64,000 nucleotides of DNA from Naegleria gruberi (taxonomy: Eukaryota): the NCBI GenBank assembly GCA_000004985.1, contig GG738912.1. One strand, written 5' to 3'. This document shows, in pieces, positions 7,780-47,429 of this stretch (its first letter is position 1; every line of letters begins with the position of its first letter). The translations under genes were made by a program, and so were the position numbers. The notes below the pieces were generated by a model. It was not told the DNA's origin. It did no database searches and worked only from the letters and a program-made list of their open reading frames with translations.

Positions 7780-7946
7780 TTTTTTTAAAACAAATCAATT
7801 AATATCGCGTGATTGTTTTTGTGATTAAGGTGCGGCTTAATTGGCGCCAAAAATCTTATCAAATGATATTAAGGTGAAACACCTTTTGAGAATGTTGTGA
7901 TACTGGTACTATAGTATTCTGTAGAAGATTGATGAATCTAATTGAA

Positions 7947-8981: not shown

Positions 8982-9163
8982 TTTTTTATAATTTGTTTTT
9001 AATTTTTATTTAATTCCTATTTTAGGTGGAAGAACTATTCCTTTTGCAAATATTGATTGCAAATATTAATGCTTTTCACATGTTTTACAAAACGAAAAAT
9101 TACTTTGAAAGTGCATATAATATAGAAATATTAACTAATATTTACTAAAAAAAGAAAATAAAT

Positions 9164-12228: not shown

Positions 12229-12286
12229 TAAGGCCAGTTATTAAGGTGTGTTTGGGGTTTATTTTCATTATGTTTTTGTAATTATT

Positions 12287-12613
12287 TCACACTTGTTGAG
12301 ATTTAGTGATTCGCAACCATCGAATGAGTTCTAAATTCTCAAGTACAGGGCTTTGACTGCTCCAATATCCACCATTTACTATTTCTTCTGTACAGGGCAT
12401 CCAAAATATCTCATCAGGAGACCAAAACCATCCATTGGTATCCATTTTTTTGAAATATATTGGGCTTACAAAGATGCTATCAACTTTGTGAATGAAAACT
12501 CCATCTGGTCTGTGAGGACGATTGGAAAAGACATCTACAATGAATTGAAATTGAGTGGCAGACCATCTCTTAGAGAATAATGCAGTCAATATCAAATATC
12601 CAACAAGCTCCAT
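12287..12613 (-). CDS. small putative secreted protein (108 aa)
   Basis: N-terminal MELVGYLILTALFS is hydrophobic; ORF bounded by AT-rich spacers; no homology recognised. Confidence 0.35.
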   Translation of the reverse strand: MELVGYLILTALFSKRWSATQFQFIVDVFSNRPHRPDGVFIHKVDSIFVSPIYFKKMDTNGWFWSPDEIFWMPCTEEIVNGGYWSSQSPVLENLELIRWLRITKSQQV

Positions 12614-12792
12614 TTTTTTTAAGATAAAATACCGGCTGGACTGGGTTAATGGAATGGAAATATATAAGGAAATAGATATAAATACACATGATGTACAATC
12701 ACTCTACTAGTGCAATAGGTAGAAAAATGTATTTGATGGATGTAAGATCACTGAAATAAAGAATCTGATAGTTCAAAAACAGTATCTGAGCT

Positions 12793-15700: not shown

Positions 15701-18700
15701 TTCCTAACAATATGTCCTCTAATAAGAGCTTGCAAACTTGAAATTCGCTGCTTTTCACTCTCCAAACTAGCAGACACAAGGTTGGATCTTGCTGCTGATT
15801 GTATAATTTGAATTTGTTCCATCAATTTAAGCTTGACTTCTCTTTCTATGCATCCTTGGTTTAGTGTTTGAACAATTGTGGCAACATCTCTAAAAGCAGA
15901 CATTTGGAGCTTTTCAACCAGAGATTTTCCAAGTGATTGAAAGGTCAAAATAGCATCTTTTTGTCTACCATCGTTGACCCTTGTAAAGTGGCCAACTACA
16001 GCGCTTTGTATTATCTTGGTATTTCTGATTGCCTTCTCGGTTTCCCTACATTTCAAGAATCTCCTGACCAAAGATTGCATTATTTCCACCAAGTCCCTTG
16101 TTAAGTAAAAGGTTTGCCTTAATGATCTACCTTTAAAAAAAGATGCAAGGGTATTACTATCCTCAAAACGGTTCCTTACCAGAGCTGACTGTAACAAGGT
16201 TGAAATAATATCTATTTTGGACTTTTCTTGTTCCGCTAATCGCCTTGTGTTGAATGACCTAGCACTCAATGAAAGGATAGAAATCATGTCCAAATGAGCT
16301 TGTTTGCTTGTCATTACATGTTTTCCTCTGATTGCACTCTGAATTACAAGCACTTTGGTTAATTGATACATGTCCACATGGTTATTTCCACGTCCTCTGA
16401 AGAAGGCCTGAATATTAGTGATACTATCATGTACATGTGAAAAATTCTTCCTTTCCAAATATCCTCTAATGAGAGCTTGCTGAGTGTTGATGTGGTTTTT
16501 GGTAGGTTGTAGATTTTTTCTCTCATCTCTTCCTCTCATGCTAGATTGCAAATTGATGATGTAAATTGTGTACTGTTCATGTTGTGCACGTAGCGTGTGA
16601 GAAAGAATGAGAGATTGTAAAATCTTGATGTTGTTGATGCATGTTTCCGATTGTTTTCTATTGATGTATGCTCTTCCGAATGTTTCAACTAAAAGAGAAG
16701 AGTCAATCAAGTCCTGATGTTCCTTCAACTTTGCATGTCCTCTTACCACAGCTTGAACATATTTGGTGTTGTTTGAAAGGGTTGAAAGGTGAGCCTTTTC
16801 CAATTTGCTTCTTATACGAGCTTGTAAAGTTTTGATCTTGTTCAATTCATTGATGAAATCTCCTCTACAGAAAGAGGATTGTAAAAAACCTTGTACGATT
16901 TGAACATTTTCTACATTTTCAATAAATTTGTTCTCTGTCAATTGTCTTCGGGAAAGTGATTGAATAACAGTAACATATTCATTAACACTGCTTTCTATTT
17001 TCCTGGCTATAAAACCACGTACCGAAGCTTGAAGAGTCAAAATGTTATAGTGGTTATGTCTAAAGGATTTGATTTCATTCTTTTTACGAATGTTGGATTG
17101 CACCAACAATACGTTATTCATTTGTTTCTCTTGTTCTTGAGTTATTAAAAAGGTCTTGACTCTTGCCTGAAGAGTTATTATTAAACTCTTATTTTGTGAA
17201 AATTCCTTTCGTGCAAAGTTTCCAAATAAAACAGATTGGGTATTCACTAAATCTTCTCTTCTGGCAGATAAATCTTTTCTTGTGAGATAAGATCTAGCTG
17301 CAGTTTGAATCATTCTCAAGTTCGCAACACTGTTTCTAAACAAGCATCTTGTTTCGAATGTCCTTAAAAGTGCCTGAGTAAAACAGATTCTAATTAGTTC
17401 ATTCTTATGCTCCAAACGTTGCACATGACCTTTCATGAGAGAACCTAATATATTTGAGCTTTCAGTTGTGTGTTTAACAAGTTGATTTTCAATTTTTCCT
17501 TGATATAATGTTTGAATTTGATGGGCCAAATTAATTTTAACTTGAAAACCACGTCTAGTCTGTACGCCTCGCAGCCATGATTGTATAGTCGAAACCTTTC
17601 GTTGAGTTTGGTGCATCAATGAACGGTTTAGCTTCCCTGAGAAAGACGCTTGAATACTATTGATGGCATTAATTCGATGCTTCAAATCAATTCTTCCCAA
17701 ATGTCCCTTGATTGAATGCTGTAAAGTTTGAACAGCATTTTGCAAGGAATGCTTATTTACTTGCTCCAATGTGCCTCTTGCTCTTGACTGAATTAGATGG
17801 GCAGCATTTCTCGTATCATAAAATTTCATCTGTCCACTGTGGCCACGAGCCAAAGAGGTCAAGAGAAGTGCCTTATCTAAATCCGTGCAAGCTTGCGAAG
17901 CGGTATTAATGCTCCTTAATAGAGTTTGAAGAAGCAACACACCCTTTTTAAGATCTGTATATTCCTTCCTTCTTGCGACAGCGTCAATTAAAGTTTGTAG
18001 GACAAGCACGTCCGATTTATACCTTTGGACTACCTTTTGTTGTTCTAGTCCACGACCATTGGCTTGAAGAAGGGAAGCAACTTGCACATATTGAGATAGG
18101 TCCTTTCTTACAAATAAAGATCTTGAAACAGGTTGAACAAGGATAGCAACGTGTTTCTTCTTTTTAAAGTCTAGGAATACCTTTCTTGCACAACAAACAG
18201 ATTGAATTAAAGTGGATGCATTCAACGCTGAATCTTTGAATTTCTGAATCAATTTGGCTCTTATAAGCGATTGTACAAGTGTAATTCTATTACATTGTTC
18301 TTTAAAGGTTGTACGAGCATTGAAACCCCTGATTGCACTATCCATAATCAAACATTTTGAATTCAAAGATTTTCTGTTTCGGTATTCGATAAATCTTCTG
18401 GAAAGCGTTTGAATGGTAGTAATGTCATTGATTAGATGGTTCAAATTGGATTGGCATTGCTTGACCCTTATCAAGGTCTGTATTGCTTGGATATTAGAAA
18501 TTTCCTTAGAGGAGTCTTGTTTCAAAAGTATTCTCCTGATCAATGCCTGAAGTAATGGAATGGATTCACTAGTGGTTTGATATTTCTTTCTCTGATTGCA
18601 TCCTAGTATCGTAGATTGAATTACTTTGATATTTTCCATAGAAAGAGTAAAGCATTTAGCTTGTTGTCCAGCTCTGAATAATCCTTGGATTACTACAGCA

Positions 18701-21700
18701 GAGTCCAAACTTGTTGTGAGATTAGTTCTTTCCAATCTTCCAACTAATGCTGCATTGAATAGATGAGCCAAATTTCGGAGCAATTGCAGGTTTTTCCTAC
18801 TAACATTAGAAGACATCATAGCTTGCAAAACCTCAATTGAGGAGGAGAAGATTACCATTTCCTGCCTGTCAGAAGAACCCTTGATGGATGCTTGCAGAGT
18901 GAGTAAAAAATTCTCCAATTGGCTCACTTCCTTCATTGCTGCTCTTCCTCTAACAAGACTTTGAAGCAATATTATCCTACTTGTCAAAACCGAACGAGAA
19001 TGTTTAACTGATAATGCCTTGGAAAGAGCTGTAAATATTTCGGATCTATCCAATTCGAATCTATAAATTTGTCCTTCTCCTTTGCCTCTGCAAAAGCTTT
19101 GCATTATCTGTATGGCTTCCTTCTTCGATTGTAAATCTTTTTGCTTATGATGTCTCCTTACAAGTGACTGTAAAGTAATGATTTGTTGAATATTGTGTCT
19201 TGTGAAGGAGACTAATAATCTAGACCTTGAAATAGACTGAAGAATTACAATTTGTTGAATATTCTTTGCAAAACAACCTCTTTCAAGTTTTGATCTGGAG
19301 AGCGATTGAATACATTCCAAGTTCAACTTGTTAGAATTGAAATCTTCTTGTTGGTATCTTCTTCTGTGCCAAGTTTGAACGGTGAGAGCAGTAACCCTCA
19401 TCAGATTGAATGTCTCTCTGATTCTATTAGACTCGCACAACACTGCAATGTTTGAAAGGGCTTGAGTCCTGAACACCTCAAAGGCAAAGAGTGAACAAAC
19501 TCTAATTAACTCTGCATCCTCGACAAGTCTTTGGTCTTCCATGATTTCGTCCTCCTCTCCAAAATAAGGTCTCATTCTCGGTATTTCACAATTGTCAGGA
19601 TAGCAATCATAATTAAATCTAACTACAGCCTCCATGAACTCGATAATGAAAAGTGGAATATACTTGAAATCAAGTGGGAATAGCCGTATTTCGTTCAAGT
19701 ATGGGAAGAGTTGTACTTGAACCCATATCAACAAAAGGGGAACCGTAGATTTTGCATCTTCTTCTACCACCTCATCTACCTTTTTGCTTGTTGTCGAATA
19801 GTAATGTTCATTCATTTTGGTGAGAACGGATTTAAGTTTTTCTCCATCATAGTGAACCAGTAGAGCTTCGTGGAAAATGTGTGAGAGAGGGTGTTCATCT
19901 CCAATTTTCATCAATGACTTGTAATTTTCCACATACTTTTCTGCATCTTCGATTGATATCTTTTCAGAAATCAAGTCAACTATACCTCTAACATTATCAC
20001 CTCTAGGATCTAATTTTTCAATTTCCTTTCTCAAAATTGCTGGGGTTAGTTTGGATTTAATCTTATCCAAAGAAGTAGGTTCCTCTGGGAATTGTATTCC
20101 TTCTTCATCTGAAATTTTTTCAATTTCCGATTGGTCTGATGATGACTCTCTGCCATGTCTCTTCAGTGGAGGTTCTTCATAATTTGCCAGAGATTCTAAG
20201 GATGTAACCTTAGCCATATCAGTGGATGTTGGTGTTGAAGGAGTTTTTGCCTTTTTGGCAAACTTGTTGAAAAAACTTTTGATTTTTTCACTTTTTGTCT
20301 TTTTTCTTTCTAATAGTTGACTACTTGTCAATGCTATTTGCGTATTACTATATGTTGATTCATCATCATCAAGTGTATCCAAACTCTGTCCTACAGAACG
20401 GCTGAAATTATTGTTTCTTGCTGGTGCTGATGCAACAGAAAATGCAGTGAAATTACTGTGAGAAGAAATTGTATCAAAAAGATCATCCCTTTCCACAGAT
20501 CCCTTCCCATCCATTAGACTGATTTTAAATGATTTGGATATATTCATGGCTTGAGATCTTCTGACTGGACTCTTTGGAGTTGTTGAGCCAGAAGCTTTTT
20601 CAGCCAGCTCTGAAAAATTGACACCCTTTCTTCTTTTCTGAGACAAATCTTTGTGTACTCCATTAAATTCTGTCAACTTGACTAGAACTTCACTCACCTC
20701 ACTATTAACATGAGAATGGGTTGTGGTTGTACTTATTTGAGAGGCAAAGGTGTGAGTATATTGTGAATATTGAGATTCTTCTGGTGATACAGGTGTTGCT
20801 GTTTCCTTCTTTTTTCTTTTTAATTTTGTAATTATGGAAGGCAACTTTCCTAGTAGAGATTTTGATCTTCCTTTCGTGGTTTCCTTTGTTATTGGAACTA
20901 CTATAGAGGGAACAACAACTAGAGGTCCTTGAAAATTATTGTTTGCTGATGCTGATGTATTACTGGTACCAGTATGATTAGGTGTATTTCCACTAGAAAT
21001 ATCCGATGTATTCATATCATCAAAATCATTGTCAGATTCATTCTCCTCTCCTTGCATATCATTCTCTGTAATATCATCAAATGATGCTCCATACACTCTA
21101 TTGCCATGTTGAACATTTTGAGTTGATGGTGTAATGCTGGATGCACTTGGTGGTGGTGAGGGTCTTCCTCTTGGTGAAAATTCATTCCTTGGAGAACGAC
21201 CATTTGGCATGATTGACCTAGGTGATAATAAGTTACCTCCTCTCGGAGTGTATAAATTGTGAGCTAGTGAATGTGATCGATGTGTACGACCACCACTCTT
21301 GGATGAAGATGTTGTAGATGCAAGTGAACTCTTATTTGAATTATTTCTAAATCTACCAACAGGTCTATTCTGTACAGGTGGTTTACTAATTACTATGGCT
21401 ACAGGTGTGGAGGAATTAATTGATGGTGAATTATCGCTATTATTGTTGGTTTGTTTACTCGATGTTACTAAATTATTCGAATAGATTATTACTCCTCCTC
21501 CATTAGTTGAAGAAGTACTTGTTCCATTCTGATTATTAGGTATTTGTCTATAGAAGGAAGAAGATGAATGTAGGGATGTATTGCTATTATTGTTACTATT
21601 ATTGAAAAGGGATGCTGGATTGGAATTTTGAATGGCAGAAAGTTTTAACTGGGGAATGACAGCAGGTACTCTTTTCGAGGAAGTAGAAGAGAAGGTAGAT

Positions 21701-22275
21701 GCATTAGGTGGAGTGGATGGAGAAATTGGTGAAAAGGTCGTGTTATTACTTCCCTGAAGATGATGAAGATTTGAGGCAAAATTGGGACTTGATGACTGAG
21801 AACGATGTCTTGGTGATAATGTCGATGATGAAGACAATGAATTGGCAAGTGATAAATTAGAAGAACCCACATTCCGTAAAACTGAAGAAGCCGAAAGTAT
21901 TCCTCCTCCTACTCCTCCTGGTGAATTCGAGTTATCCAAACATTGACTATTACCTATCGATAATTGACCTCCATTATTATTATTATTACTAATAATATTA
22001 TTATTAATCGAAGCAGCAATCAATCCTCCAATATTATTATTATTATTATCCATAATACTATTATTTAAATTAATTGTTCCTTGTTGTTGCACACTTGTCG
22101 GCGATGATACAACAACAGATGCAGATGCACCTCCTCCTCCTCCCTGAGCAGACGAAGAAATACTTCCATTGAAAAGAACATTTTGTGCAGCTGCTGATGA
22201 TGATAAATTGGCGGCGGGAAGTAAATCTTGATGGAGGCGGGAAGTGATTTTTTCGGGATTTATCGAATTTCCCAT
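12793..22275 (-). CDS. giant IQ-motif array protein (3160 aa), ASPM/Asp-like architecture without recognisable CH or motor domain
   Basis: Uninterrupted 9.5-kb ORF. The N-terminal ~700 aa are S/N/G-rich and disordered. A ~250-aa globular region follows (…LLIWVQVQLFPYLNEIRLFPLDFKYIPLF…). Then ~2100 aa consist of degenerate repeats with ~23–27-aa period matching the IQ consensus [IVL]Qxx[IVL]RGxxxR (e.g. IQSLVRRHH, IQALIRGHIVR, LQSLVRGRAAMK), running to the C-terminus. Confidence 0.75.
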   Translation of the reverse strand: MGNSINPEKITSRLHQDLLPAANLSSSAAAQNVLFNGSISSSAQGGGGGASASVVVSSPTSVQQQGTINLNNSIMDNNNNNIGGLIAASINNNIISNNNNNGGQLSIGNSQCLDNSNSPGGVGGGILSASSVLRNVGSSNLSLANSLSSSSTLSPRHRSQSSSPNFASNLHHLQGSNNTTFSPISPSTPPNASTFSSTSSKRVPAVIPQLKLSAIQNSNPASLFNNSNNNSNTSLHSSSSFYRQIPNNQNGTSTSSTNGGGVIIYSNNLVTSSKQTNNNSDNSPSINSSTPVAIVISKPPVQNRPVGRFRNNSNKSSLASTTSSSKSGGRTHRSHSLAHNLYTPRGGNLLSPRSIMPNGRSPRNEFSPRGRPSPPPSASSITPSTQNVQHGNRVYGASFDDITENDMQGEENESDNDFDDMNTSDISSGNTPNHTGTSNTSASANNNFQGPLVVVPSIVVPITKETTKGRSKSLLGKLPSIITKLKRKKKETATPVSPEESQYSQYTHTFASQISTTTTHSHVNSEVSEVLVKLTEFNGVHKDLSQKRRKGVNFSELAEKASGSTTPKSPVRRSQAMNISKSFKISLMDGKGSVERDDLFDTISSHSNFTAFSVASAPARNNNFSRSVGQSLDTLDDDESTYSNTQIALTSSQLLERKKTKSEKIKSFFNKFAKKAKTPSTPTSTDMAKVTSLESLANYEEPPLKRHGRESSSDQSEIEKISDEEGIQFPEEPTSLDKIKSKLTPAILRKEIEKLDPRGDNVRGIVDLISEKISIEDAEKYVENYKSLMKIGDEHPLSHIFHEALLVHYDGEKLKSVLTKMNEHYYSTTSKKVDEVVEEDAKSTVPLLLIWVQVQLFPYLNEIRLFPLDFKYIPLFIIEFMEAVVRFNYDCYPDNCEIPRMRPYFGEEDEIMEDQRLVEDAELIRVCSLFAFEVFRTQALSNIAVLCESNRIRETFNLMRVTALTVQTWHRRRYQQEDFNSNKLNLECIQSLSRSKLERGCFAKNIQQIVILQSISRSRLLVSFTRHNIQQIITLQSLVRRHHKQKDLQSKKEAIQIMQSFCRGKGEGQIYRFELDRSEIFTALSKALSVKHSRSVLTSRIILLQSLVRGRAAMKEVSQLENFLLTLQASIKGSSDRQEMVIFSSSIEVLQAMMSSNVSRKNLQLLRNLAHLFNAALVGRLERTNLTTSLDSAVVIQGLFRAGQQAKCFTLSMENIKVIQSTILGCNQRKKYQTTSESIPLLQALIRRILLKQDSSKEISNIQAIQTLIRVKQCQSNLNHLINDITTIQTLSRRFIEYRNRKSLNSKCLIMDSAIRGFNARTTFKEQCNRITLVQSLIRAKLIQKFKDSALNASTLIQSVCCARKVFLDFKKKKHVAILVQPVSRSLFVRKDLSQYVQVASLLQANGRGLEQQKVVQRYKSDVLVLQTLIDAVARRKEYTDLKKGVLLLQTLLRSINTASQACTDLDKALLLTSLARGHSGQMKFYDTRNAAHLIQSRARGTLEQVNKHSLQNAVQTLQHSIKGHLGRIDLKHRINAINSIQASFSGKLNRSLMHQTQRKVSTIQSWLRGVQTRRGFQVKINLAHQIQTLYQGKIENQLVKHTTESSNILGSLMKGHVQRLEHKNELIRICFTQALLRTFETRCLFRNSVANLRMIQTAARSYLTRKDLSARREDLVNTQSVLFGNFARKEFSQNKSLIITLQARVKTFLITQEQEKQMNNVLLVQSNIRKKNEIKSFRHNHYNILTLQASVRGFIARKIESSVNEYVTVIQSLSRRQLTENKFIENVENVQIVQGFLQSSFCRGDFINELNKIKTLQARIRSKLEKAHLSTLSNNTKYVQAVVRGHAKLKEHQDLIDSSLLVETFGRAYINRKQSETCINNIKILQSLILSHTLRAQHEQYTIYIINLQSSMRGRDERKNLQPTKNHINTQQALIRGYLERKNFSHVHDSITNIQAFFRGRGNNHVDMYQLTKVLVIQSAIRGKHVMTSKQAHLDMISILSLSARSFNTRRLAEQEKSKIDIISTLLQSALVRNRFEDSNTLASFFKGRSLRQTFYLTRDLVEIMQSLVRRFLKCRETEKAIRNTKIIQSAVVGHFTRVNDGRQKDAILTFQSLGKSLVEKLQMSAFRDVATIVQTLNQGCIEREVKLKLMEQIQIIQSAARSNLVSASLESEKQRISSLQALIRGHIVRNNSHGRVYIQKLVVAQATIRKFNEQKIRGGVNLLHALLQGNTERTSRNRMQNQIITIQSAFRSSSTVASKLNQLEAVSMIQNLIISHKERTEHASPIESVHLIHALIQSGMERRLAQTSMAFVTNLQSTIRKSSEAAKMKLDLKRLETLESLIRSKIVQKKLDKQTSSSSMVCAFLRGNKTRLLVKNSLNNIEIIQSLIRNRFTRAEFEISKNAVLAIQARCRSSAMQNIESKQLENITIIQAFLRGSTTHMDCSGIIVLQALVRRKAEEQSRKQHISDLISLQALANSRNINMLKNQTLNKIIVLQALIRNKSSKKNNYSPIDRNATQMIQALVRANKERSNIHALQTFTKYVHALAKGVLVRSGYERAQHDLVTIQAAFQGKYKRRENAEAIQDVSALQSLLRRKQAKDEKATSINQVILLQSLWNGISQRNATTLEQERLQIFTSFAKGFIQLSTRSRIEKHILNLQAVCRSRSIQQEYQNERRYYSITIIQNAARGNTDRKNHENQLQRVGTLQAASRGYSARTSREEVINSLTHIQSLCRKQLALKTFERISSQMDLISTFMSSSLVRKQYANSMTKVQIVTTRLHGISTRRQSSTTTESIKTIQSIVHRMSEERRIEKTRENIAIIQALFKSQLARRSFSKSITLATVLQSLLERKTTILKTYQKKKDMKIFQSRVRTFTTLKQRDMKMSGLIVIQTFFRSNLVKRSFNEDRDSLLDSRNMIIALYRANQTRQEFKKMQILTESIQSLMQQQIAIRDLNTNIQYINALQSIIRGRFVNEDFRTVSDSANYLQSLYYGHETRGSLTDMKELSNTVALLFMCHNKRNEFEFALSSISLLQARVRQIQQAKSLKSITDKVFTIRSAIEGSRTRVELSIKNENLQTIQGLLRGSFTRKQTTQFSEQTLSSTTTIQAIGRRFLTAKQRAVLKSQFHQRLNLVTRQFKYGEERKTGVALLSSLSLLNKK

Positions 22276-27742: not shown

Positions 27743-28392
27743 TTAATACACCCAATTGTTTAATTGTTTGACATGTTACATATGCCATGTCACTTTGGAA
27801 CCTGATCGTTTTTTGCAAACAATAAAAGGATCTTTGTTATCCAAAATTATACTCAAGGTGCATTGTTTAATAAGGAAATCATCAGATATTAAATAGTTCA
27901 CTGTTTCAAACGACATTTTCCTTTCGTCAGATATGCATTTTTTAGTGTGGATGATTTACTATTTGCAATTTATTTACAATGAAATTGAGGAGGAGCAGTA
28001 ATTAGAATAGTCAATTCCTAATACCGCTCCATATATGTGAATTATGAAACAAGTGACATGATAGCAGCTGATTAATTGCAGGAATGGGTTTAATTGTATA
28101 AATGTTAAATACGTAAACATCTTCACCCGTTGAATACCTTCAAGTATACAATTACATTGAAGCCACTTTTACAATTAAATACCTAGATAAAGACAATGAT
28201 TTAAGATTGGATGTAAACAATCTCCAATATATATTCAAAATATCGATCAGTGTTGCTGCTCAATAACAACTTCCAAAGCGTGAAATTTGAATCAGATCAA
28301 CAACTTATATTTTGAGGGTTGGTCTGGGAATCGAATTGCAATAAAAAATTTGAAAGACCAGAGAATAAATACATTGATATAACAGCCAAGAA

Positions 28393-28444
28393 GCGCGATG
28401 GGCTCATAACCCATAGGTCCTAGGATCGAAACCTAGATTTGCTA
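28393..28444 (+). pseudogene. tRNA-Met(CAT)-like 3' fragment (anticodon arm, T arm, acceptor 3' strand); 5' part missing
   Basis: AGCGCG-ATGGG-CTCATAA-CCCAT-AGGTC-CTAGG-ATCGAAA-CCTAG-ATTTGCT-A folds as D-stem 3' strand, anticodon stem-loop (CAT), variable loop, T arm and 3' acceptor. Nothing upstream pairs with ATTTGCT. Confidence 0.4.
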
Positions 28445-28553
28445 ATCGTTTTACAATTTTGGAATTGAAAATGTTTAAAATATTTAAATCTATTAATAAA
28501 TTTAGTGAACTAAGGTAAGAAAACCTTATCTATCCAATACATTTAAAAGGAAA

Positions 28554-28625
28554 GGGGACCAGTGGGAATCGAACCCACGGCCTCTCGCACCCAAAGCGAG
28601 AATCATACCACTAGACCATGGTCCC
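28554..28625 (-). tRNA. tRNA-Pro (anticodon TGG)
   Basis: Reverse complement GGGACCATGGTCTAGTGGTATGATTCTCGCTTTGGGTGCGAGAGGCCGTGGGTTCGATTCCCACTGGTCCCC is a canonical cloverleaf with loop TTTGGGT; near-identical to eukaryotic tRNA-Pro-UGG; a T-run follows. Confidence 0.85.
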
Positions 28626-28733
28626 TTACACTATTATTTGCTTAAGACATAGATCCCAATAGTTTGTTGTGTTTTCTCGAATAATTTGTAGGCACTGTTT
28701 GTTTAAGCAAGTTAAAATTTTGAAAAGAATAAC

Positions 28734-28739
28734 AAAAAA
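28734..28739 (-). terminator. Pol III oligo-T terminator of the 5S gene
   Basis: TTTTTT immediately 3' of the 5S rRNA on the minus strand. Confidence 0.6.
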
Positions 28740-28857
28740 GACTACAGCACCACAGGTTCCCAAGTTGTCTCCAACCTCAGTATTGATGTGGCTCGACGAT
28801 GCTTAACTTCTCAAATCGGACGGGATGAGGTGCATTCATCGTGATATGGCCGTAGCC
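28740..28857 (-). rRNA. 5S ribosomal RNA
   Basis: Reverse complement GGCTACGGCCATATCACGATGAATGCACCTCATCCCGTCCGATTTGAGAAGTTAAGCATCGTCGAGCC…GGTTGGAGACAACTTGGGAACCTGTGGTGCTGTAGTC has the helix I pairing and the conserved CCCGTCCGAT / GAAGTTAAGC / GGGAGAC-like blocks; followed by T6. Confidence 0.85.
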
Positions 28858-35904: not shown

Positions 35905-37110
35905 TTGATTCAAATCAATATGAAAAATTCAGCTCTTAAATCAATCCTTCTAGGATTGGCTTTCATTGCACTTTCTGCAATGGTGGTCATGGGAACAGCT
36001 CCTCAAAAACCTGTTTCTAAACCAACTGATACTTATGGTGATCATCAACAATATTGTTACAATAAGTGTACTCATTACAAGACTATTCAAGGTAAATGCG
36101 TTGATTACGAATGGGTTGGTACCAAGAAGGAATGCTGTGATTGGAAGACAGTTGGCAAGGGTAAATGTTTGGAATATAAGAAGACTCACAAGTGTGACAA
36201 GTACAGTAAGAATGAAAAGATTTGTTTGGGTCACGGTTACAAACAATTCTGTACCAAGGTTACTAAGCATAAGATTTGTGCCAAATATGAATGGAAGGAA
36301 TTGTGCAAACATCACGGAAAGAATAATGCATGTGATGAATATGCTTATCATTTCATTTGTACCAAGTATGGTCATTCTGCTAGATGTGCTGAAGAAACCT
36401 ACGTTCCAAAGATTAAGTATTTCCATAAGAAGAGATGTGCCAAATACTCTGTCCATCAATATTGTGCCAAATATAAGAAACTCTCAAGAACTGTTGCTAA
36501 ATGGGTTCCAGTCAGTAAGAAACATTACAAGGGTTGGATTGATCATTACTATAAGCAAGTTTTGGAAAAGAAGTATCACACCATCTGTGTTGCTTATGCC
36601 AAGAGAAAGACCTGTACCAAATATGAAAACGTCAAGTTTGCCAAGAAGATTGGTTATGAAAAGAAGTGTGTCAAAATCGTCAGAAGAAAGTATTGTGTTG
36701 CCAAGCAAAAGGCTAAATTCTGTACCAAGTGGACTCCAAGCAAATTCTGTGATCTCAAAGAAAAGGTCAGAATCTGTAAGGCTTTCAGAGAAGATAAGTT
36801 CTGTTGTGATTATACTGCCAAGCCATATTGTACTCAATACAAGACATTGAAGCCAAGATGTATTAAGAGATCATTCAAGAAGCATTGTGTCAAGAAGTCA
36901 CCAGGTTATAAGGTCTGTGTCAAGTACAACTTTGTTGGAGGTAAGAGAATTTGTAAAAAGCACGCTGATAAGAGTGTCTGTGCTAAGAAGAAGAGAGTTT
37001 GTACTAAGGTTGATACCTACAAACCACCAAAGAAAGTTGACACCTACAAGCCACCAAAGAAGGTTGATACTTACAAACCACCAAAGAAGGTCGACACTTA
37101 TAAGAAGTAA
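35905..37110 (+). CDS. secreted, very basic Lys/Cys/Tyr-rich repeat protein with C-terminal 4x KVDTYKPPK repeats (no family recognised)
   Basis: Signal-peptide-like MKNSALKSILLGLAFIALSAMVVMG; about 11 spaced C-[AT]-K-[YW] units (CAKYEWKELC, CTKYGHSARC, CAKYSVHQYC, CTKYENVK, CTQYKTLKPRC…); AAG-rich coding; ends KVDTYKPPKKVDTYKPPKKVDTYKPPKKVDTYKK*. Confidence 0.65.
   Translation: MIQINMKNSALKSILLGLAFIALSAMVVMGTAPQKPVSKPTDTYGDHQQYCYNKCTHYKTIQGKCVDYEWVGTKKECCDWKTVGKGKCLEYKKTHKCDKYSKNEKICLGHGYKQFCTKVTKHKICAKYEWKELCKHHGKNNACDEYAYHFICTKYGHSARCAEETYVPKIKYFHKKRCAKYSVHQYCAKYKKLSRTVAKWVPVSKKHYKGWIDHYYKQVLEKKYHTICVAYAKRKTCTKYENVKFAKKIGYEKKCVKIVRRKYCVAKQKAKFCTKWTPSKFCDLKEKVRICKAFREDKFCCDYTAKPYCTQYKTLKPRCIKRSFKKHCVKKSPGYKVCVKYNFVGGKRICKKHADKSVCAKKKRVCTKVDTYKPPKKVDTYKPPKKVDTYKPPKKVDTYKK
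37006..37107 (+). repeat. 27-bp tandem repeat (3.8 copies) encoding KVDTYKPPK
   Basis: aaggttgatacctacaaaccaccaaag / aaagttgacacctacaagccaccaaag / aaggttgatacttacaaaccaccaaag / aaggtcgacacttataag: copies differ mainly at synonymous positions. Confidence 0.8.
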
Positions 37111-37492: not shown

Positions 37493-38145
37493 ATGACGAC
37501 TGAAGAGGAATTTGATGAAAATGATCTCCTTCTCGGAGGAGAAGCAACAACAGTTTCAGTTGAAGAATTTAGAGCAATGAAGAAAATGATGAAGGAGTAT
37601 ACGGAGAGAATTAAGGTTCTGGAAGATGTTTCAACACACTTTGCAAATGAATTTAAAATTATGAAAAAGTTGATCACAGCTCATGTCCATGAAGTGAACA
37701 ATAATATAGAAAACAAATTTAAGGAGATGAACAAGATTGTTGATTCAAAATTGGAAAAGATAGAAGGAAGATTGGATATGGCCTTTCAAAAATTGGAATC
37801 CACCTCTGAAGAATTGAACAAATCACAACATAGAAAGAGTAACAACTCTTCATTCCAAACCCCTAGAAAGAACGATTCTCTGTTGCAAATGTTCTCCCCG
37901 ATTGAAAGGAGTACAGGCAAGAAGGTTACTAGTGTTAAAAAACCAACTATTATAGAAGAGGAAGCACCATTGGAGGAAGTCGATTATACAGAAGAAATGA
38001 TAGAGGGTGTCTTGTCGTCGGAAGTTTTCGAGCCTCAACAAGGTATGTAGTATTGTTGTTGGAATGGATGACAGTTAACTCTTTGATTAGAAACTCTGCA
38101 AAAGATATTCAAGCATTGCGTTCTGAGATTGAAAGATTTGAATAA
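37493..38145 (+). CDS. coiled-coil protein (about 210 aa); 2 exons
   Basis: ORF 37493-38050 ends …EPQQ at a GGTATGT site. A 32-nt intron (38041-38072, GTATGT..GACAG) continues VNSLIRNSAKDIQALRSEIERFE*. The intron is inferred from frame continuity only. Confidence 0.45.
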
Positions 38146-38164
38146 GGGAGATATTAGAAAAACA

Positions 38165-39060
38165 ATGGCAAAAACGCATTTTGTGCAATTCTTTACAGAA
38201 GGAAAGATTGCCATCTTTTTGGATGAAAAGAGTTGTAACACCGATGTTGTTTGGATTGGAATTATGAAAAAGTTCAAAAAGTTTGGAATTATCAAGAGTA
38301 AGTAGTTTTTAGAGTTGATGAACAAATGTGAATTTCAATAGCTCAAGAAGAGTTATCGTATGACAACTTTGAGAAGGCAATCATAGTAATGGCTCAAAGC
38401 CTCAAAGATTCTTCATCAATGACACCAACACAACGAACTGAAATGTTTCTTGTTTCTTTCATTCCTAATTTCTATGATGTAATACAAATGAAGGAAGTCT
38501 ACAACTCAACTAATGAGGAACTTTTGAATCAGACCAGAGACATGGATAATTCCCATTACTTTTTAACAAACAATGAATGCTTTGATATTCTAAAGAAAAA
38601 CAGAAAACAATTGAAGCAAATATGGTCTATCCATAGTATCAATAAGAAACCAAGAGCTGGTTTACAACCAACACTGATTGGAGTCAACATTAAGGATCTA
38701 TTCGATATCTGTCAACAATATGGTTTGAAATCATTGATTACCAAAACTGATTTGATAACAGTAAGTATTCAGATGATATGGTTTTTTGTAATCATAAAAT
38801 CTTTTTAGATATTCGAACAAAGAATGGATCTCAAAAAGAATTCATTGTTTGAAAACAGACTTTCATACAATGCTTTCGAACTTGTACTAATTGACATTTC
38901 CAATCATATCTATGGTGGTAAACCATTTTGTAATACATACACTACTATTGAATCAAGAGTAGAAAAACTAATTAGCAAACTAATACTGGCATACGAAGAG
39001 GATAAATCAGTTCAAGCTGTCAAAATATTGAACGCTGTAACTTATGGACCGGGAATCTAG
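38165..39060 (+). CDS. hypothetical protein; 3 exons (38165..38297, 38342..38760, 38809..39060)
   Basis: ATG MAKTHFVQFFTEGKIAIFLDEK…; donors AGAGTAAGT and ACAGTAAGT; acceptors CAATAG and TTTTTAG. Splicing joins ORFs 38389-38808 and 38824-39060 in frame. Confidence 0.55.
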
Positions 39061-39744
39061 GTAATAAACATGTTCAAATAATACATATGTACAGTTCAAA
39101 TTTTAATAATTATATTTATATTGTTATTAGAATCATGGAGAATTTGCTCCGTGACTATCTAGTTTGTATCATCTCGAGATTATTGAACAACACATCCTTC
39201 AGATTCAGCTCTGACTGGAGCCTATTAAAAGTTACCCGATAAATATCATCACAACAATAGAAAATACTACATACCTTCAAAGGGTTAACTTGGGAAAGGA
39301 AGACTAAAATCCACATTGTCCAACAACACAAAACAGTCAAGAAGGTCATGGTTCTAATCAAACTATAATATGATGAATAAAAAAACAATTGGTCAGTTAA
39401 TGTTCGTATCCTCCAAACTCCTAAAACAAGATCTCAACATACCCAGCTTGTTTACCGAACAAAATGGTGAATGGCATGATAACAATGCACAAACCCCAGA
39501 AAAGAGCAGATCCAATAATGAGCGTCTTTGCGTCTTCGCTCAAAGCCATTTTTTCTTTTTTATATTTTTTTTAAAATTCAATTAAATATTTTATTTTCAA
39601 CTCCGGAGCCGGAAAAGGATTGCCTGCTAAAAAGAAAATATCTTCAAGGCAGATGGTGTTTGGAAACTATCAAGAATGTGTGAATTCATTATTTGATCAT
39701 TAATATAGATTAGTATTCTTCTTTGAATTATTCAACATATTGAT

Positions 39745-39860
39745 GCGGAAGAAAATATTTTAAAATTATTAACGAAGAATTTAATCAAAAATTTACCTCC
39801 ACACTGATGTGTGATGATATTGGTTGGAAATTGTACAATCAAAAATTAGATGATTGCCAG
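39745..39860 (+). repeat. ~120-bp element, copy A (same orientation as copy B at 43459-43580), 86 bp upstream of the ATPase gene ATG
   Basis: Shared blocks: ggaagaaaatatttta…cgaagaattta(a/t)…aaaaatttacctcc…ttggtt(g/a)gaaattgt(a/g)caatcaaaaatta(g/t)atgatt(g/a)cca. Confidence 0.6.
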
Positions 39861-39945
39861 ATTGTTGTCTAATAATTCCACTTGAGTTTGTTCAATTTCT
39901 ACAGCTTGGCGCCATTTTTTTAAACAACTCAGAAAAACAAAAAAA

Positions 39946-42587
39946 ATGGGAACATCAAACTCTAAACCAACCCTGCAAAACAAAGGTCACAAAAGGACAG
40001 CCTCGTTTGAAACTTACCCAACCACTACTCCGAAGAAGCCTAAAACCACAATTGATCTAAAAACTGTTAACAAATATGAAAATATTAAAGAAAGGGCAAA
40101 GCGATCATTGTATTCCATGGCAGACACCATTAGACTTCCATTCGTCAACAGAGAGCAATCGTGTGAAGCCTTAATGCTGAATCTGATACGACAAAAAACT
40201 TCAGTTCATGGAATGCTTCCAATTTTGAGTCAGCATTATGGAAGCGGAAAAACACGTCTTGTTCATGAGTTTCGTAAAGCACTACCAGAAAGAGGCGATT
40301 TATCATCGCTAAGATTAACTGAGTCTTCTAATATCGTTGCCAACAATTTAATGAAAGCAACTCTTGTAAATATGGACATGTCTAATGCTACATTGACAAC
40401 CTCCCTTGATAATGATCTGGATTTTCCTAATGGTGCTATTTCAGATCTATTCTTACAAGAAGTAGTTATTGCATTGAAGCATCTGTCATCAGAGAATAGT
40501 GATCCACTAATTTTAAAATCGTTAAGAATTCTCAACTGTATAAGTGTGCCAAATATTTATGACCTTAATAGAGAAGAATTAATCATTTATGATTGCTTAA
40601 TTAAGTGCACTAAGTGGGCCAGTTTTCTTCGTAAATATTCTCAATTTGAATTGTACCCTCTATTGATACTAATAGATGAAGCATCATATTTAGAATATCA
40701 CTACAAGGAAGGATATTCCTCCTTTGTAAACCTTTGGGAAAGTACTTTCAAAACAACAATGGGATCATACGGAGATAAAGTAAGAACACCTGGTATCTAC
40801 TTTATTGTTTGTGGAGTTTCCTCAAACTTAACCAAGTTGGGAAGAGGTTTACTAAAAGTTTCGAATAAGGTTATTTCGCCTACACCCGCTGTGCATATTA
40901 TATTGGATATGCTAAAAGTAGATCACATTACAGAAATGTTCCAGAAAGTGGTTGTAACAACAGATGGAAATAACATACGAGAGTTCACTGAAATATTTTG
41001 TAATATAGGAAAGAACTACGAGTACTTTTGTAAAGTGGTATTCATCTATACAATAGGATTGCCCAGATTGATCGAATATGTTGTCTTATCCTTACTCAAT
41101 TTTGTTAAACAAAATCATTCAATAGATTTCAGCAGTAGAGAGAGAATAGATGCTGTATTTGATAACTTTTTAATGAGAAAAGAACTAGCCCTTGTGAGAA
41201 ATGCAAAAGAGATTTGCCCATTCTATACCAACCCATTCAATGATGAGAAAATCGACAGACTTATAGCACTTTTTACGATGGGACTAATGGGATTTCCCGT
41301 ACCAATCGCTGATGAATATATTTCAGAGATTGATCTACTACATAATCTGAATGTGGCTGTTGAAACACCTACTGTTAACGATGATCGAGTATTCAAAATG
41401 TATATTCCCAAGTTCACTTTGATTAAGGCAATGAATGATAACAATATGAAACATATTTCAATACTTTCTTGCCTTCCTCAAAGATTTTATGATTACATAG
41501 ATAAAGGTGATTTACTCAAACAACTATTCCTTGACACAATTCTTACCCGTATATTATTTACTCTGAGGACTTCAGATTCGAACGAATGGGACAAAATTCA
41601 TTCGATATTTTCACTTCCAAAAATCTTGAAAAACAAACAGTTGGAACTGGATATGAACCTTCCTGTTAGATATCTCCCTAAAATTGTAAGCTCAGATAAT
41701 AAGAACACCCCTAAAGCTCTTTCTTTTTCTAAAAGACATCCCTGGTGTTTCAATATGAGTTACAAGTTTTGGAATGATCTTTATGGATTGCAAATGAATG
41801 GCGGCGTGATAGGTCATCCGGCTCCTAAATCCAAAAGTCCAGATTTTGTAATATCAGTTCCACCAAATTCTGCCATATCTATTGCATGCAAGAATTTTTC
41901 CTCCAAATTCTCATTAAGTATGTTACAAGATGAAATAGATAAGGCCAGTCTAGTGGAAAAGAACAATGTACTATTCATATTTTCTTCCCAACTGTGTGAA
42001 ACGTTATCAAATGCTTGCCTAGAACAAGGTTATATTCATCTGTATGAAGGAAAATGGAAATTTGATGATTATTTGCAATTTCATGAGTTGAAGAGCATTC
42101 CTAATCTAAAATATAGAGCAAAAGGCACCACCTATGTGGCAAACACCATTAATGTGTATCCGAAAATGGAAGTAATTATTTTAGGAGAGAAATTGTTTAA
42201 ATCTTTCTTTTTGGAGGATGAGCAATCACCTATGGATATTCATCTCAAATGATCTTCATAGAAGAGAAGTTACTTCCATATGCTGGTGGAAGTTATGAAA
42301 CAGCATCCAGTGTTACTGGAGGAGAAGGTCAACCACCACCACATCCAGTTACCATTCCAAGAATGCTTGGAAATGGCCCATCTCTACTAGATTTGAGATT
42401 GCCATCCAATGTACTGGAATATATACTCGAACTCTTGAGAACTAACTCAGGTCCAGGATCTGTACTAAACGAAAAGGTTGCACAATCTGAAAAGGATGAA
42501 AAGGAAGCCAAGGATTTTGATATCTTCAATCCTCATCATGATCATCATGATAAGAACGATGATGACTATGACTACAATCTAAATTAA
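39946..42587 (+). CDS. N-myristoylation-motif P-loop NTPase (Walker A GSGKT, Walker B LLILIDEA); likely about 880 aa once the frame is repaired
   Basis: MGTSNSK fits MGxxxS. ILSQHYGSGKTRLV is a Walker A motif and YPLLILIDEASYL is Walker-B-like. ORF 39946-42252 stops at AAATGA inside an A-run; adding one A reads …HLK-MIFIEEKLLPYAGG… through ORF 42249-42587. Confidence 0.6.
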
Positions 42588-43458
42588 GTTTTAGGTTCAT
42601 GTTCAAAAAGTTTTGTAAATAAAGTTGTGTGTAACTTTTTTAAACGGTGACCTGGTTTCCATTAATACTGTTGTGATCTTTCTAATGGATTGTAAAAGTA
42701 GTTGTTGAGGTTTTTTTTTCATCAAAGAACATCGAGTTCTGATCTGGATTTGAACAGAAAAGCTTGTAAAAAGTGGAAATTGTTTGTTAGCATAAAATAA
42801 TTCACAAAGCAAGATATTTTGATGAATTTTGCAATTCCATTTCACCCACACAAATTCAATCCAAACACAATTTCTTTCACCTTCTCCAATTCTCTATTGT
42901 TGATGCCCGTTTTGTTAATATTCCTAATAATCATTAATGCTGAACAAGAACAATAGAGAAGATTTTCCCGCCCAAGAATAACTTGCCTTAACAAAAAAAT
43001 GTTTAAAACTAACAATAAATATGTGAACAACAATCAGTTTTATTCATGTTATTAGGATCATTTCCCTTTTGTTCTTCATCATGTTCCTCATCATGTTTTT
43101 TACTCATACTCTCTTTATCAGATCCATTTTCACAACTTCCTTTTCATAACTGAATCTTCACTTGTTCAATTCTTGGAATCCAGATTCTTACATAATTTGA
43201 TATAATTTCTGTTAGCTCAACTGGTTCATATGTTATTGAAACACCGTCATTTGGTACTGATGTCCTCAGAAGAAAGAAGGGTTAAGGAACATGCTGCTCC
43301 ACAAAAGCTATGAATTAAAAACAACTATGTTTAATAAATTATTAATTCTTAATCAGGTTAATATTTTCCAATTTTGATGATTTTGATGGCAGAGATACTC
43401 ACCAGTGTTCAGAAATTGCAAATCATTATTAATAATAAATAGATTATTAATATTCTTT

Positions 43459-43580
43459 GTGGAAGAAAATATTTTAATTAATTATAATTAGTACCGAAGA
43501 ATTTTATTAAAAATTTACCTCCGAGTTTGATCATGTTGGTTAGAAATTGTGCAATCAAAAATTATATGATTACCAACATG
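43459..43580 (+). repeat. ~120-bp element, copy B, 375 bp upstream of the USP7 ATG
   Basis: About 75–80% identical to 39745-39860 over blocks in the same order and orientation. Confidence 0.6.
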
Positions 43581-43954
43581 TTAAAAGATCTCTCTTGTCA
43601 TTAATAATGTAAAATGTGGATTGATCACAACAAGTTGATGGTTCATCACCTCCAACAATCAGCACTGTGTGATGAAAGAACTAGCAAAATTGTATTTTTA
43701 GACCAGAATAAAAAATAAAAGAAAAAATTTTGTCGCTTGCCTTCTTCCATCATCAGGAGAGTGAAACGCGTCATCAAAAATTAAATTAGTTAATCTAAAT
43801 ACAAGTGGTTGTATATTGTTAAATTGCTACTTGTTTAGGTTACAGTAGATTATTATTATATATAGTGGTTATTTGTTTGGTTTTTAGGAAGCTAAATATT
43901 ATTATTTTACACCCGATCAAAGTATTGTTGTGAAGAGATAAATACCTAGTAACA

Positions 43955-46900
43955 ATGAAAATGACAGATGAATATGACCTTTCAGATAGTGATGATGAAA
44001 TGATGCAAGATACTGAGGAAGATAGAGGTTTCAGTGCTGAAGAAGAGAGAAAGCTTGCTTTAAGACAACAGGAATTGGATGAAGCAGCTCAATATTATGA
44101 ACCAATCGATGAATCAAAGGAAGGTGTCTATCATGTCAAATCATTTGATGCCAATACTGAAAAAGTGAGATGGAAGGCTGACTTTTCAAAAATGGCACAA
44201 AAGCAATATTCTCCAACATTTACTATTGCTGGAAATCATGAATTTAGATTACTTGTTTTCCCAAGAGGTAATCAAGTACCTTGCATCAGTCTTTATCTTG
44301 ATACCAATAACTCACAAGAAATCAAATTGGTTCGTTTCCAAGTTTCAATTTTGAATCAAAAGGATATCAGAGAGTCACACTCACAAGGTTTGTTTACATT
44401 ATCAATAATTAACTCATTTTGAATTTAGATGCTGAGAAAAGATATGGTCCAAATGATGTCGATTGGGGCTTTAAAGAATTTATTGAATTGAAAAAAGTCA
44501 ACCCAGATGTAGGATTCATATCTACTAGTGGAATTGTATATTTTGAAATGGTTATCCACATCTGTACTCAACCATATCTTATTGATCCAATTTCTTATGA
44601 TTCTAGAAAGGAGACAGGTTTTGCTGGCTTGCAAAATCAAGGTGCTACTTGCTATATGGTAAGTTTAAAAATTGATATAATTTTTATTAACATATTTGAT
44701 AGAATTCTCTTCTTCAAACATTGTATCTATTAACTTATTTCAGAAAATCGGTTTATAAAATGCCAATCGACGAAAATGAAAAGCCTCAAGATAGTATTCC
44801 ATTGGCATTGATGAGAGTTTTCTTTAGATTACAATTTGATAAAGGTGCTGTGGATACTAAGGAACTTACCAAATCATTTGGTTGGGATACTATAGATTCC
44901 TTTTTACAACATGACGTTCAAGAATTTGCTAGAGTTCTGATTGACAATTTGGAAAAGAAAATGGAAAAGACTGATCAAAAGGAAGTTATGAGACAAATTT
45001 TTGAAGGAATGTGTAAAAATTATATCAAATGTATCAATGTTGATTATGAATCATCTAGAAAGGAACCTTTTTATGATTTGCAACTCAACGTTAAGGGATG
45101 TAAAAATGTAGCTGAATCTTTTGATCAATATATTTTGGAAGAAACTTTGCAAGGAGAAAACCAATATCAAGCTGAAGGACACGGTTTGCAAGATGCTAAG
45201 AAGGGTACTAACTTTTTGAAATTACCACCAGTTTTAATGTTGCATTTGAAGAGATTTGAATATGATTATATCAGAGATTTAATCTACAAAATTAATGACA
45301 GATATGAATTCCCACTTGAAATTGATTTAGGAAAGTACCTAAGCGAAGATTCCGAGCAAAAGAAGGAAGATAATACCTATGTTTTATTCTCGGTTCTTGT
45401 ACATAGTGGTGATGTTTCTGGAGGTCACTATTACAACTTTGCTAGACCATACATTAATGAAGATAGGTGGTTCAAGTTTGATGATGAAAAAGTCTATGAG
45501 GTCAATGAAAGTCTCGCAGTTCAAGACAATTATGGTGGAGAAGCAAAGAAGAGTAAGATGTTTTGGTTGTCATCAAATCCTAACTCTGTCTACAAAAAGT
45601 TTACAAATGCTTACATGTTGCTTTATATTAGAAAATCTGCTATTTCTAACATGATTGCTCCAGTTGAAGTTGATGAAATTCCATCTCATTTGGAAGAAAG
45701 ATTCCAAAAGGATAGAGATGAAAGAGAAAGAAAAAAGAGAGAAAAACTTGAAGCAGCCAAGTATTGCAACATTAAGATTGTTACTGATGATGATATCAAA
45801 AAATCTGTTGAAAAGACTGGATCCGGTTTGGTTGAATTTGAAGATGTGGAACCTATCAAATTCTTAAGAGAAGGTACTTTTGCAGAATTGAAAGAGCAAA
45901 TTGAAACTCTTTATGGTATCAAGGCTGAACAACAAAGATTTTGGAAGTGGCAAAAGAGACAAAATCATACTCTCCGTCCAGATGCTATTATAAAACCAGC
46001 CGATGATGCTTCTACTATTGAGAGAAAGTATCCATATGTTAAGCATCAACAAGCTCCTCCTGTAGAATTATACCTTGAAGTGTCAAAACAAACTTACTCT
46101 TATCAAAAGGATGATGAGGAATGTGTTGTTCACTTCCCAGAACCAGCACAAAGATATATTCTCTTATTTATCAAGGAATATAATCCAGAGGAAAGAAAAT
46201 TGAACTTTGTTGGTACTGTATATGCTGATATGTTGAGTGAAGTCTCTGAAGTTATCCCATCCATTAAAGCCCTCATTGGTGCTGATGAAGATGATGATAT
46301 TCATATTGTTGAAGAAATCAAACCAAAGATGATTGATGATGTTAGAATTGATCAAAGCTTTAAGGATGCTCAACTCCAAAGTGGAGATATTCTTGCCGTT
46401 CAAAGAGTTCCAAAGGGAACTGACTTATCTAAATATCCAATTCCAACAGCAAAGAGTTATTACGACTATTTGAATAACCGTGTTTCTGTTGAAATTAGAA
46501 AATTGGAAGATCCTTTAAAGAATGTTGCAGTTGTCGAACTTTTGAAGAATATGGAATACAAGGAGCTTACTGACAAGCTAGGTTCTGCTCTTGAAGTTGA
46601 TGGAAATTTCCTTCGATTGACTGGTCACCATCCTTATAGTGAAGGACCTTTGGAGCAACCATTTAAGAGTAACTCAGGCTCTACTTTGAAGGATATGATC
46701 AACATTGGTCAAACCCCTCAAAAGATATTGTATTATGAAATTTTAGATGAACCAATATTTAATGTCGAAAATAAGAAAGAATTGATTGTGACATGGATGA
46801 ACTCTAAATGCCAAGATGTAGAAAAGTTCAAATTCCTTCTCTACCCTGACCAAAAGGTCAATGATTTGAAGCAATTGATTGAAGCCAAGGTCAATGGACG

Positions 46901-47429
46901 TAGAGAAATTGAGAACTCTACAATTGTTATTTCTCAAATTTCTAATTTCAAGATTAGCAAACTTTTAACGGGAGAAGAACTCATCAAAACTCTTGCTACC
47001 AACAAGGGAGAAACTATTCGTGCAGAAGAAATTCTAAATGAGGAGCTGTCTATTATCACTTCATCACATAATCTGACAGAAAACACACGTATCTTACAAG
47101 TTCAACATATTTGTAAGGAAACCACAGGTTATCGTTTGTTTGGTAATCCAAGCGTTCTTGTTGTCAAGACTGAAGAAACTTTAGGAGATGTCAAGAAGAG
47201 ACTCCAAGATAAATTGCAAGTCAGAGACATTGACTATAAGAGATACAAGTTCTACTTTATTGTAAACATGAAGATCAAGGATGCTTTGGAAGATGATTCT
47301 CTATTGTTCTGTGAATTATTCGACAAGGAAAAACAATCAACCAACGTTGATGTTGTACTTGCTTTGGAACACAAGGATCCAACACCAAAAGCCAGATGGT
47401 ATGAAAAGCCAATTGTTATCAAGAATTAA
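43955..47429 (+). CDS. USP7: ubiquitin carboxyl-terminal hydrolase 7 (HAUSP)-like: MATH domain + USP catalytic domain + UBL repeats; 3 exons
   Basis: Exon 1 (43955..44387) carries a MATH domain (YHVKSFDANTEKVRWKADF…FRLLVFPRG). Exon 2 (44429..44658) ends with the Cys box GLQNQGATCYM. Exon 3 (44703..47429) begins NSLLQTLYLLTYFRKSVYKMP and has the His box YVLFSVLVHSGDVSGGHYYNF; it aligns with human USP7 to the C-terminus. Introns are 41 and 44 nt (GTTTGT..TTTAG, GTAAGT..TGATAG). Confidence 0.9.

Follow-up and report, generated by a model that had tools for sequence, protein, structure and literature searches.

MITEs (miniature inverted-repeat transposable elements) are typically small and AT-rich and lie 5' of genes, and DNA transposons in general tend to re-insert close to where they came from. 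Macrotransposons, in which two DNA transposons in like orientation are linked, have been described for Ac/Ds of maize. Long target duplications arise by staggered breaks or by template switching of the types termed fork stalling and template switching (FoSTeS) and microhomology-mediated break-induced replication (MMBIR). For the genome of the heterolobosean Naegleria gruberi, DNA transposons have been reported, and most of its repeats are unclassified (PMC12344493). A search of the literature for Naegleria MITEs or promoters returned nothing specific. The subject of this report is a repeat present as two copies, A and B, in a 64-kb stretch of N. gruberi DNA (contig GG738912.1, assembly GCA_000004985.1), referred to as the window throughout; copy A lies upstream of a gene for a P-loop ATPase, copy B upstream of the neighbouring gene for USP7. 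The common descent of both copies is certain. They are read here, tentatively and with a confidence that falls a little short of calling it probable, as relics of a MITE-like, non-autonomous DNA element placed by transposition.

The original prediction, made from the letters of the DNA, had described an element of ~120 bp duplicated at 75–80% identity in ordered blocks. Both segments were found at the positions given for them, with the blocks that had been quoted, and their identity amounts to 79.3% over 121 columns (E=9e-26, BLASTN of the core segments against the whole window). The similarity also holds under formal alignment statistics, the Smith–Waterman score being 145 as compared with 28.7 ± 4.3 for shuffles. 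The length, on the other hand, applies to a core, and the full unit measures about 190 bp (Table 1): beyond the core, homology extends to the 5' side, where the extension is significant by itself (0 of 500 shuffles), and by ~15 nt to the 3' side, where it is marginal (P=0.06). Outside these limits the flanks of A and B bear no relation to each other. Both copies have the same (+) orientation, with starts 3737 bp apart, and the AT content of the unit is 76%. A gap-tolerant global alignment yields 147 identities in 164 aligned columns; the copies differ by 17 substitutions, of which 5 are transitions and 12 transversions, and by 11 indel events that together cover 57 nt, and a stretch of ~20 nt at 39726-39746 is specific to copy A. 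The Kimura two-parameter distance (K2P) between the copies is ~0.11 over the aligned columns.

Searches for further copies were negative. Apart from A and B, all BLASTN matches of the core segments in the window have E≥0.006, and an nhmmer profile built from A and B found no third copy there. A larger, decayed duplication around the copies was considered and rejected, as sensitive BLASTN and BLASTP in six frames of 36-40 kb against 40-50 kb revealed the unit and nothing else. Two metagenome scans that used conserved blocks of the unit gave 0 matches, as did a scan of a viral collection for the unit, while a GTDB scan returned two isolated matches of a 22-mer alone in metagenome-assembled genomes of Bacteroidota, which are taken as chance.

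The termini of the unit, CATTATTAAT...ATTAATAATG, read CATT...AATG and not TG...CA. In copy B, reverse complementation of 43588-43609 gives a sequence that agrees with the 5' arm in 18 of 22 positions (one gap), and the outer edges of this inverted match (43424 and 43609) fall on the homology limits, which had been set independently beforehand. Compared with shuffles and with AT-matched genomic ends or segments, the inverted ends have P=0.0003–0.003; their score exceeds that of all 2,422 noncoding-like 200-nt segments of the window, and the inverted orientation outscores the direct one. They provide moderate evidence, at about 0.01 after allowing for analyst choices, and not proof. The original prediction had seen neither terminal inverted repeats (TIRs) nor target-site duplications (TSDs) at this repeat; no TSD was detected here either, but copy B has inverted ends, which lie outside the 120-bp core. 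Along these lines, the suggested kinship with MITEs or short interspersed elements (SINEs) survives in its first half. A SINE was considered and discarded, as neither copy has similarity to tRNA, 5S or 7SL RNA that could serve as a head, and the 3' end of the unit, ...TAATAAT(G), carries no A-rich or simple-repeat tail.

The unit is non-coding, as all six reading frames match equally between the copies and several indels are not multiples of three. Indels are almost as frequent as substitutions in the alignment. The longest identical run is 17 nt, whereas the chance expectation at that identity is ~31 nt; with no identical run beyond chance, the ordered blocks are no evidence of selection. Judged by this comparison of two sequences, the pair looks like neutrally decaying, unconstrained repeat DNA.

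In mechanistic terms, a ~190-bp, AT-rich, non-coding unit with inverted-repeat termini would have transposed into the upstream regions of two neighbouring genes. Copies A and B could then both belong to a dispersed family or, with greater likelihood given the 3.7-kb spacing, reflect re-insertion near a donor copy. We infer that the unit was mobile; should it influence the ATPase gene or USP7 as part of their promoters, this would be a by-product and not the reason for its presence. Transposition of a MITE-like element accounts for a discrete unit, inverted ends, AT-richness, promoter-proximal positions and neutral decay, and there is no need to assume an ATPase-gene donor that was lost recently.

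Several observations weigh against this interpretation. Only two copies were seen, none of them in the other 60 kb of the window, where the terminus motif was found at no other element, and transposase, reverse transcriptase and integrase domains are absent among the large open reading frames (ORFs) of the window. Indels have degraded the ends of copy A (inversion: P about 0.1–0.5). The inverted core ATTATTAATAAT in copy B is itself an AT-rich palindrome, and for this reason, together with the choices made in the analysis, the inverted ends were graded no higher than moderate. In none of the four flank pairings was a TSD detected (P≥0.2), a test that argues against duplications of ~6 bp or more, those of 2–3 bp (TA, TAA) not being judgeable at 76% AT and this divergence. 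One candidate TSD picked out by eye on the outer flanks, AATGTG..GA..TT, failed against the null. Finally, a like-oriented pair at a distance of 3.7 kb, which exactly brackets a lineage-specific segment, fits a single local event at least as naturally. Transposition of a MITE-like element does not by itself account for this spacing, orientation and bracketing of the only two copies in 64 kb. The coincidence is softened in that DNA transposons favour nearby sites, that the pair was what drew notice in the first place, and that adjacent promoters bracket the upstream gene by geometry.

Table 1. Coordinates of the repeat copies, their inverted ends and the surrounding features in the window.
Feature	Position	Strand	Details
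Repeat copy A	39683-39877	+	195 bp; core of the original prediction, 39745-39866
Repeat copy B	43420-43609	+	190 bp; core of the original prediction, 43459-43582
5' inverted-repeat arm of copy B	43424-43444	+	CATTATTAATAATAAATAGAT
3' inverted-repeat arm of copy B	43588-43609	+	ATCTCTCTTGTCATTAATAATG
Interior between copies	39878-43419		3542 bp
AAA+/STAND-like P-loop ATPase ORF	39946-42252	+	768 aa, intronless
112-aa ORF	42249-42587	+	Last exon of the ATPase gene in the RefSeq model; no family match
ORF-poor stretch	42588-43419		~830 nt, between 112-aa ORF and copy B
V-ATPase subunit e (ATP_synt_H)	39180-39549	-	78 aa; exons 39549-39443, 39362-39275, 39221-39180
USP7	43955-47429	+	MATH, UCH, USP7_ICP0_bdg and USP7_C2 domains; introns present

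The bracketed segment stands out in a comparison with the related species N. fowleri. Two elements of this context had been missed by the original prediction, namely the minus-strand gene of V-ATPase subunit e beside copy A, and the absence of the bracketed 3.5 kb from the N. fowleri locus. There, the gene order around USP7 is a 501-aa gene (+), ATP_synt_H (−) and USP7 (+), with a gap of 611 bp between ATP_synt_H and USP7. Protein-level mapping places the three genes collinearly in the window (37562-39027, 39549-39272 and 43979-47426), where the corresponding gap is 4405 bp. V-ATPase subunit e (PF05493 match of 58 bits, cut-off 25) is 84–90% identical to its N. fowleri orthologue, exon by exon, and the USP7 proteins of both species are 71% identical. 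Nothing of the N. fowleri contig maps to 39550-43978 of the window, and the loci of N. fowleri and Willaertia contain nothing that corresponds to the interior between the copies. Among the genomes inspected, only N. gruberi has this segment, with copies A and B at its two edges. Subtraction of 39683-43419 (one copy plus interior, 3737 bp) from the N. gruberi gap leaves 668 bp, to be compared with the 611 bp of N. fowleri. The collinear block, including the head-to-head pair V-ATPase-e/USP7, spans 37562-47426 of the window and 7090-13591 of the N. fowleri contig (L001), and synteny ends on both sides of it; in N. fowleri, USP7 is followed by a UQ_con gene, which does not occur in the window.

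Alternatively, the two copies may be the ends of a block of ~3.9 kb, which in a single event would have brought 3.5 kb with an orphan ORC/Cdc6-like AAA+ gene into the conserved head-to-head V-ATPase-e/USP7 promoter. This is the best of the alternatives, albeit a rather unlikely one. Two versions can be envisaged: (a) two like-oriented MITE-like units moved together with the DNA between them, i.e., as a macrotransposon, or (b) staggered breaks, or template switching during replication, produced a long target duplication in which ~190 bp of recipient intergenic DNA came to lie on both sides, which would leave a copy of the promoter segment with each flanking gene. The unequal gaps in an otherwise collinear region speak for a single event, as do the direct repeats at both edges of the extra DNA, the near-restoration of the N. 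fowleri distance once a copy and the interior are removed, the lack of a counterpart of the interior in N. fowleri and Willaertia, and an ATPase family with no named member from either of them although both proteomes were searched. Close spacing, same orientation and the absence of other copies in the window follow automatically. Version (a) accounts for the inverted ends as well, but macrotransposition is rare; under version (b) these ends would be a coincidence at roughly 1 in 100–1000. In its copy-paste form, version (b) also expects a near-identical donor of the ATPase gene, whereas the nearest paralogue is ~50% identical, so that the donor would have been lost or foreign.

For either version, no duplication is seen around the block, a comparison of the DNA to the left of copy A with that to the right of copy B giving a score of 6 (P=0.21). 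Furthermore, the unit gives no significant alignment to intergenic DNA of N. fowleri (z 0.9–1.7), and there is no sign that it was ancestral promoter DNA; this result is expected at a distance at which the USP7 proteins themselves share only 71% of their residues. Many N. gruberi genes lack N. fowleri orthologues, and, given the geometry of adjacent promoters, the bracketing is weak as an argument when taken alone.

The bracketed ORF of 768 aa carries Walker A (GSGKT) and Walker B (LILIDEA) motifs and begins with MGTSNSK; across 86% of its length it is 100% identical to the NCBI entry 'predicted protein [Naegleria gruberi]'. In an exhaustive HMMER search of 1.84 billion proteins, with databases that include the N. 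fowleri and Willaertia proteomes, the family comprised only 25 representatives, i.e., three N. gruberi paralogues that diverged deeply (with identities of 100%, about 50% and 35%) and environmental sequences, the latter on ordinary eukaryote-like contigs; no member is named from N. fowleri or Willaertia. As the nearest paralogue is only ~50% identical, the genome holds no recent donor copy of the ATPase gene. The AlphaFold model of the protein (pLDDT 77, pTM 0.64) consists of an ORC/Cdc6/STAND-like fold in the N-terminal ~480 residues followed by a beta-rich C-terminal domain, with matches to Cdc6/ORC, the archaeal Walker ATPase PAB2304 and the NTPases of NLRs and Apaf-1. The earlier description as a myristoylated P-loop ATPase is supported at the level of the predicted fold as far as the P-loop is concerned, whereas the myristoylation is a prediction from the N-terminal sequence MGTSNSK, which fits an N-myristoylation motif. 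A role of the bracketed gene as a transposition ATPase was considered and is not supported, Cdc6/ORC, PAB2304 and NLRs being the best matches and TnsC a lower-ranked one.

The RefSeq/JGI model of this gene (765 aa) splices out 110 codons at the end of the uninterrupted 768-aa ORF and has the 112-aa ORF in their place. The C-terminus dropped in this way is 51% identical to that of a paralogue (E=3e-30), and the third paralogue aligns there, too. Since the C-terminus is kept among the paralogues, the unspliced 768-aa ORF represents the conserved product, and the RefSeq/JGI model is probably wrong, unless it describes an alternative isoform.

Copy A resides in the head-to-head intergenic region, where 133 nt separate it from the ATG of ATP_synt_H and 68 nt from that of the downstream 768-aa ORF; the ATG of USP7 follows 345 nt after the end of copy B. 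Both copies are indeed 5' of the genes to which they had been assigned. The shared promoter or untranslated-region (UTR) module proposed on first inspection keeps this upstream placement, with no positive support otherwise, there being neither a sign of constraint nor any alignment to the orthologous N. fowleri promoter. A selected promoter or 5'-UTR module, copied locally and driving or co-regulating the ATPase gene and USP7, is considered improbable. It would agree with two copies that lie upstream of genes and on the same strand as those genes, and with the short distance of copy A from the ATG within a bidirectional promoter. A further point comes from a 3.8-kb contig (L002 1-3788, Logan ERR2815185), probably the transcript of another Naegleria-like species, which holds an uninterrupted USP7 (77% identical to the N. 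gruberi protein, N. fowleri 71%) with an upstream leader of 314 nt. If this leader length of at least 314 nt is conserved, transcription of N. gruberi USP7 would start near the end of copy B. The leader aligns weakly to the region upstream of N. fowleri USP7 (z=2.9) and not to the N. gruberi one, and the unit with its surroundings shows no significant match to it; the sequences upstream in N. fowleri, Willaertia and L002 share nothing conserved with the unit. Selection is difficult to reconcile with 11 indel events in ~190 bp and with identical runs no longer than chance. The distance to the ATG differs fivefold (68 versus 345 nt), and no sub-motif of the unit occurs upstream of other genes of the window. 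In addition, we know of no mechanism that copies a 190-bp promoter piece across 3.7 kb without a transposon or a duplication.

Between copy A (31 nt away) and the ATG (32 nt away), a heptamer, TGGCGCC (in cTTGGCGCCa), is found at 39908-39914; it is GC-rich amid 76% AT and might serve the ATPase gene as a promoter motif. The same heptamer resembles the start of a primer-binding site, and the layout of ~190-bp direct repeats around ~3.5 kb recalls the long terminal repeats (LTRs) of a degenerate retroelement similar to terminal-repeat retrotransposons in miniature (TRIMs) or large retrotransposon derivatives (LARDs), whose interior would now hold the ATPase gene. Such an origin is very improbable. 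The ends are CATT...AATG; the heptamer was rejected as a primer-binding site, as it comprises only 7 nt at 31 nt from the repeat end; no polypurine tract precedes copy B, and no 4–6-bp duplication flanks the block. The interior is devoid of gag, reverse transcriptase and integrase, and its ORF has an ORC/Cdc6-like AAA+ fold. The least credible proposal is a small RNA gene, e.g., for a small nucleolar RNA (snoRNA), duplicated in two intergenic regions, for although copy A gives a weak Rfam match to the C/D-box snoRNA snR50 (22 bits versus a gathering score of 45, E=0.5) and shuffles of copy B fold less well than copy B itself (z about −3.3 to −3.5, by hairpins that depend on copy-B-specific bases), this best match lies far from the gathering score and is not common to both copies, the fold of copy A is no different from shuffles (z +0.1 to −1.35), a fold common to A and B was not found, and indels of such frequency are incompatible with a conserved structure.

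With respect to the remainder of the interior, neither strand of the stretch between the 112-aa ORF and copy B contains a long ORF; Rfam gave no match that reached the gathering score, and the stretch resembles neither the DNA left of copy A nor the related loci. For a gene-dense window it seems long, and it may represent a decayed gene, a long UTR or a portion of the inserted DNA. From the identity of the bracketed ORF to an N. gruberi protein, the window is nuclear DNA of this species, in keeping with its GC content of ~33% and its dispersed 5S and tRNA genes. A cluster of RNA polymerase III genes occupies 28384-28857, with 5S rRNA at 28739-28857 (−; 101 bits), tRNA-Pro(TGG) at 28554-28625 (−) and a short tRNA-like match at 28384-28444 (+; 33 bits), which was not called by ARAGORN and may be a truncated tRNA or a pseudogene. 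Two Sel1-repeat genes in opposite orientation, 6029-7489 (−) and 10696-11904 (+), each contain 108-nt periodic repeats. An inverted gene duplication is suggested by their arrays, in which 7475-7574 and 10740-10839 (100 nt) show 72% complementarity. At 35905-37110, a Cys/Lys-rich ORF of 401 aa with a signal-peptide-like start and no Pfam match ends in 27-nt tandem repeats that encode KVDTYKPPK (37006-37104). The largest ORF of the window comprises 3160 aa (12793-22275, −).

As to the significance of the locus, a MITE-like family would add a described non-autonomous DNA element to N. gruberi and provide insertion markers near promoters. A single event, if true, would represent a concrete and datable case of lineage-specific gene relocation in a heterolobosean genome, in which an orphan gene was set into a conserved head-to-head promoter without disabling either neighbour, with the K2P distance of about 0.11 dating the event. 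On either reading, the feature is local, comprises two copies and has a modest significance in general terms. By-products are the corrected model of the ATPase gene and a conserved bidirectional V-ATPase-e/USP7 pair that can be used for comparative promoter work.

Returning to the known systems, the LTR pairs of TRIM and LARD elements share with this locus a non-retroviral interior between two direct repeats that measure at most a few hundred bp, but differ by their TG...CA ends, adjacent primer-binding site, polypurine tract and short flanking duplication. Duplications of the FoSTeS/MMBIR type likewise have direct repeats, on the length scale of the recipient site, that flank inserted DNA, and removal of one repeat together with the insert restores 668 bp at this locus versus 611 bp in N. 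fowleri; inverted ends are not predicted by them, a donor copy of the gene is missing from the proteome, and nothing marks the unit as ancestral promoter DNA. The Ac/Ds macrotransposons share like-oriented, TIR-bearing units that flank a few kb including a gene absent from the relative's site. In contrast to them, there is no duplication around the composite and no sign that the block ever moved, and the units are about 10–20% diverged. Stowaway- and Tourist-type MITEs differ from the unit in that it has two known copies (within 64 kb), no visible TSD and degraded termini in copy A, and in that neither an autonomous partner nor a terminus diagnostic of a superfamily was identified for it within the window. 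The unit is not filed as a MITE, because copy number and TSDs are defining features of this class, while the count made here covers the 64-kb window and no TSD was seen. Nevertheless, it is the MITE that the unit most resembles: a length of ~190 bp (below ~800 bp), AT-richness, non-coding character, sharp limits, the candidate TIRs of copy B and a position 5' of genes are common to both.

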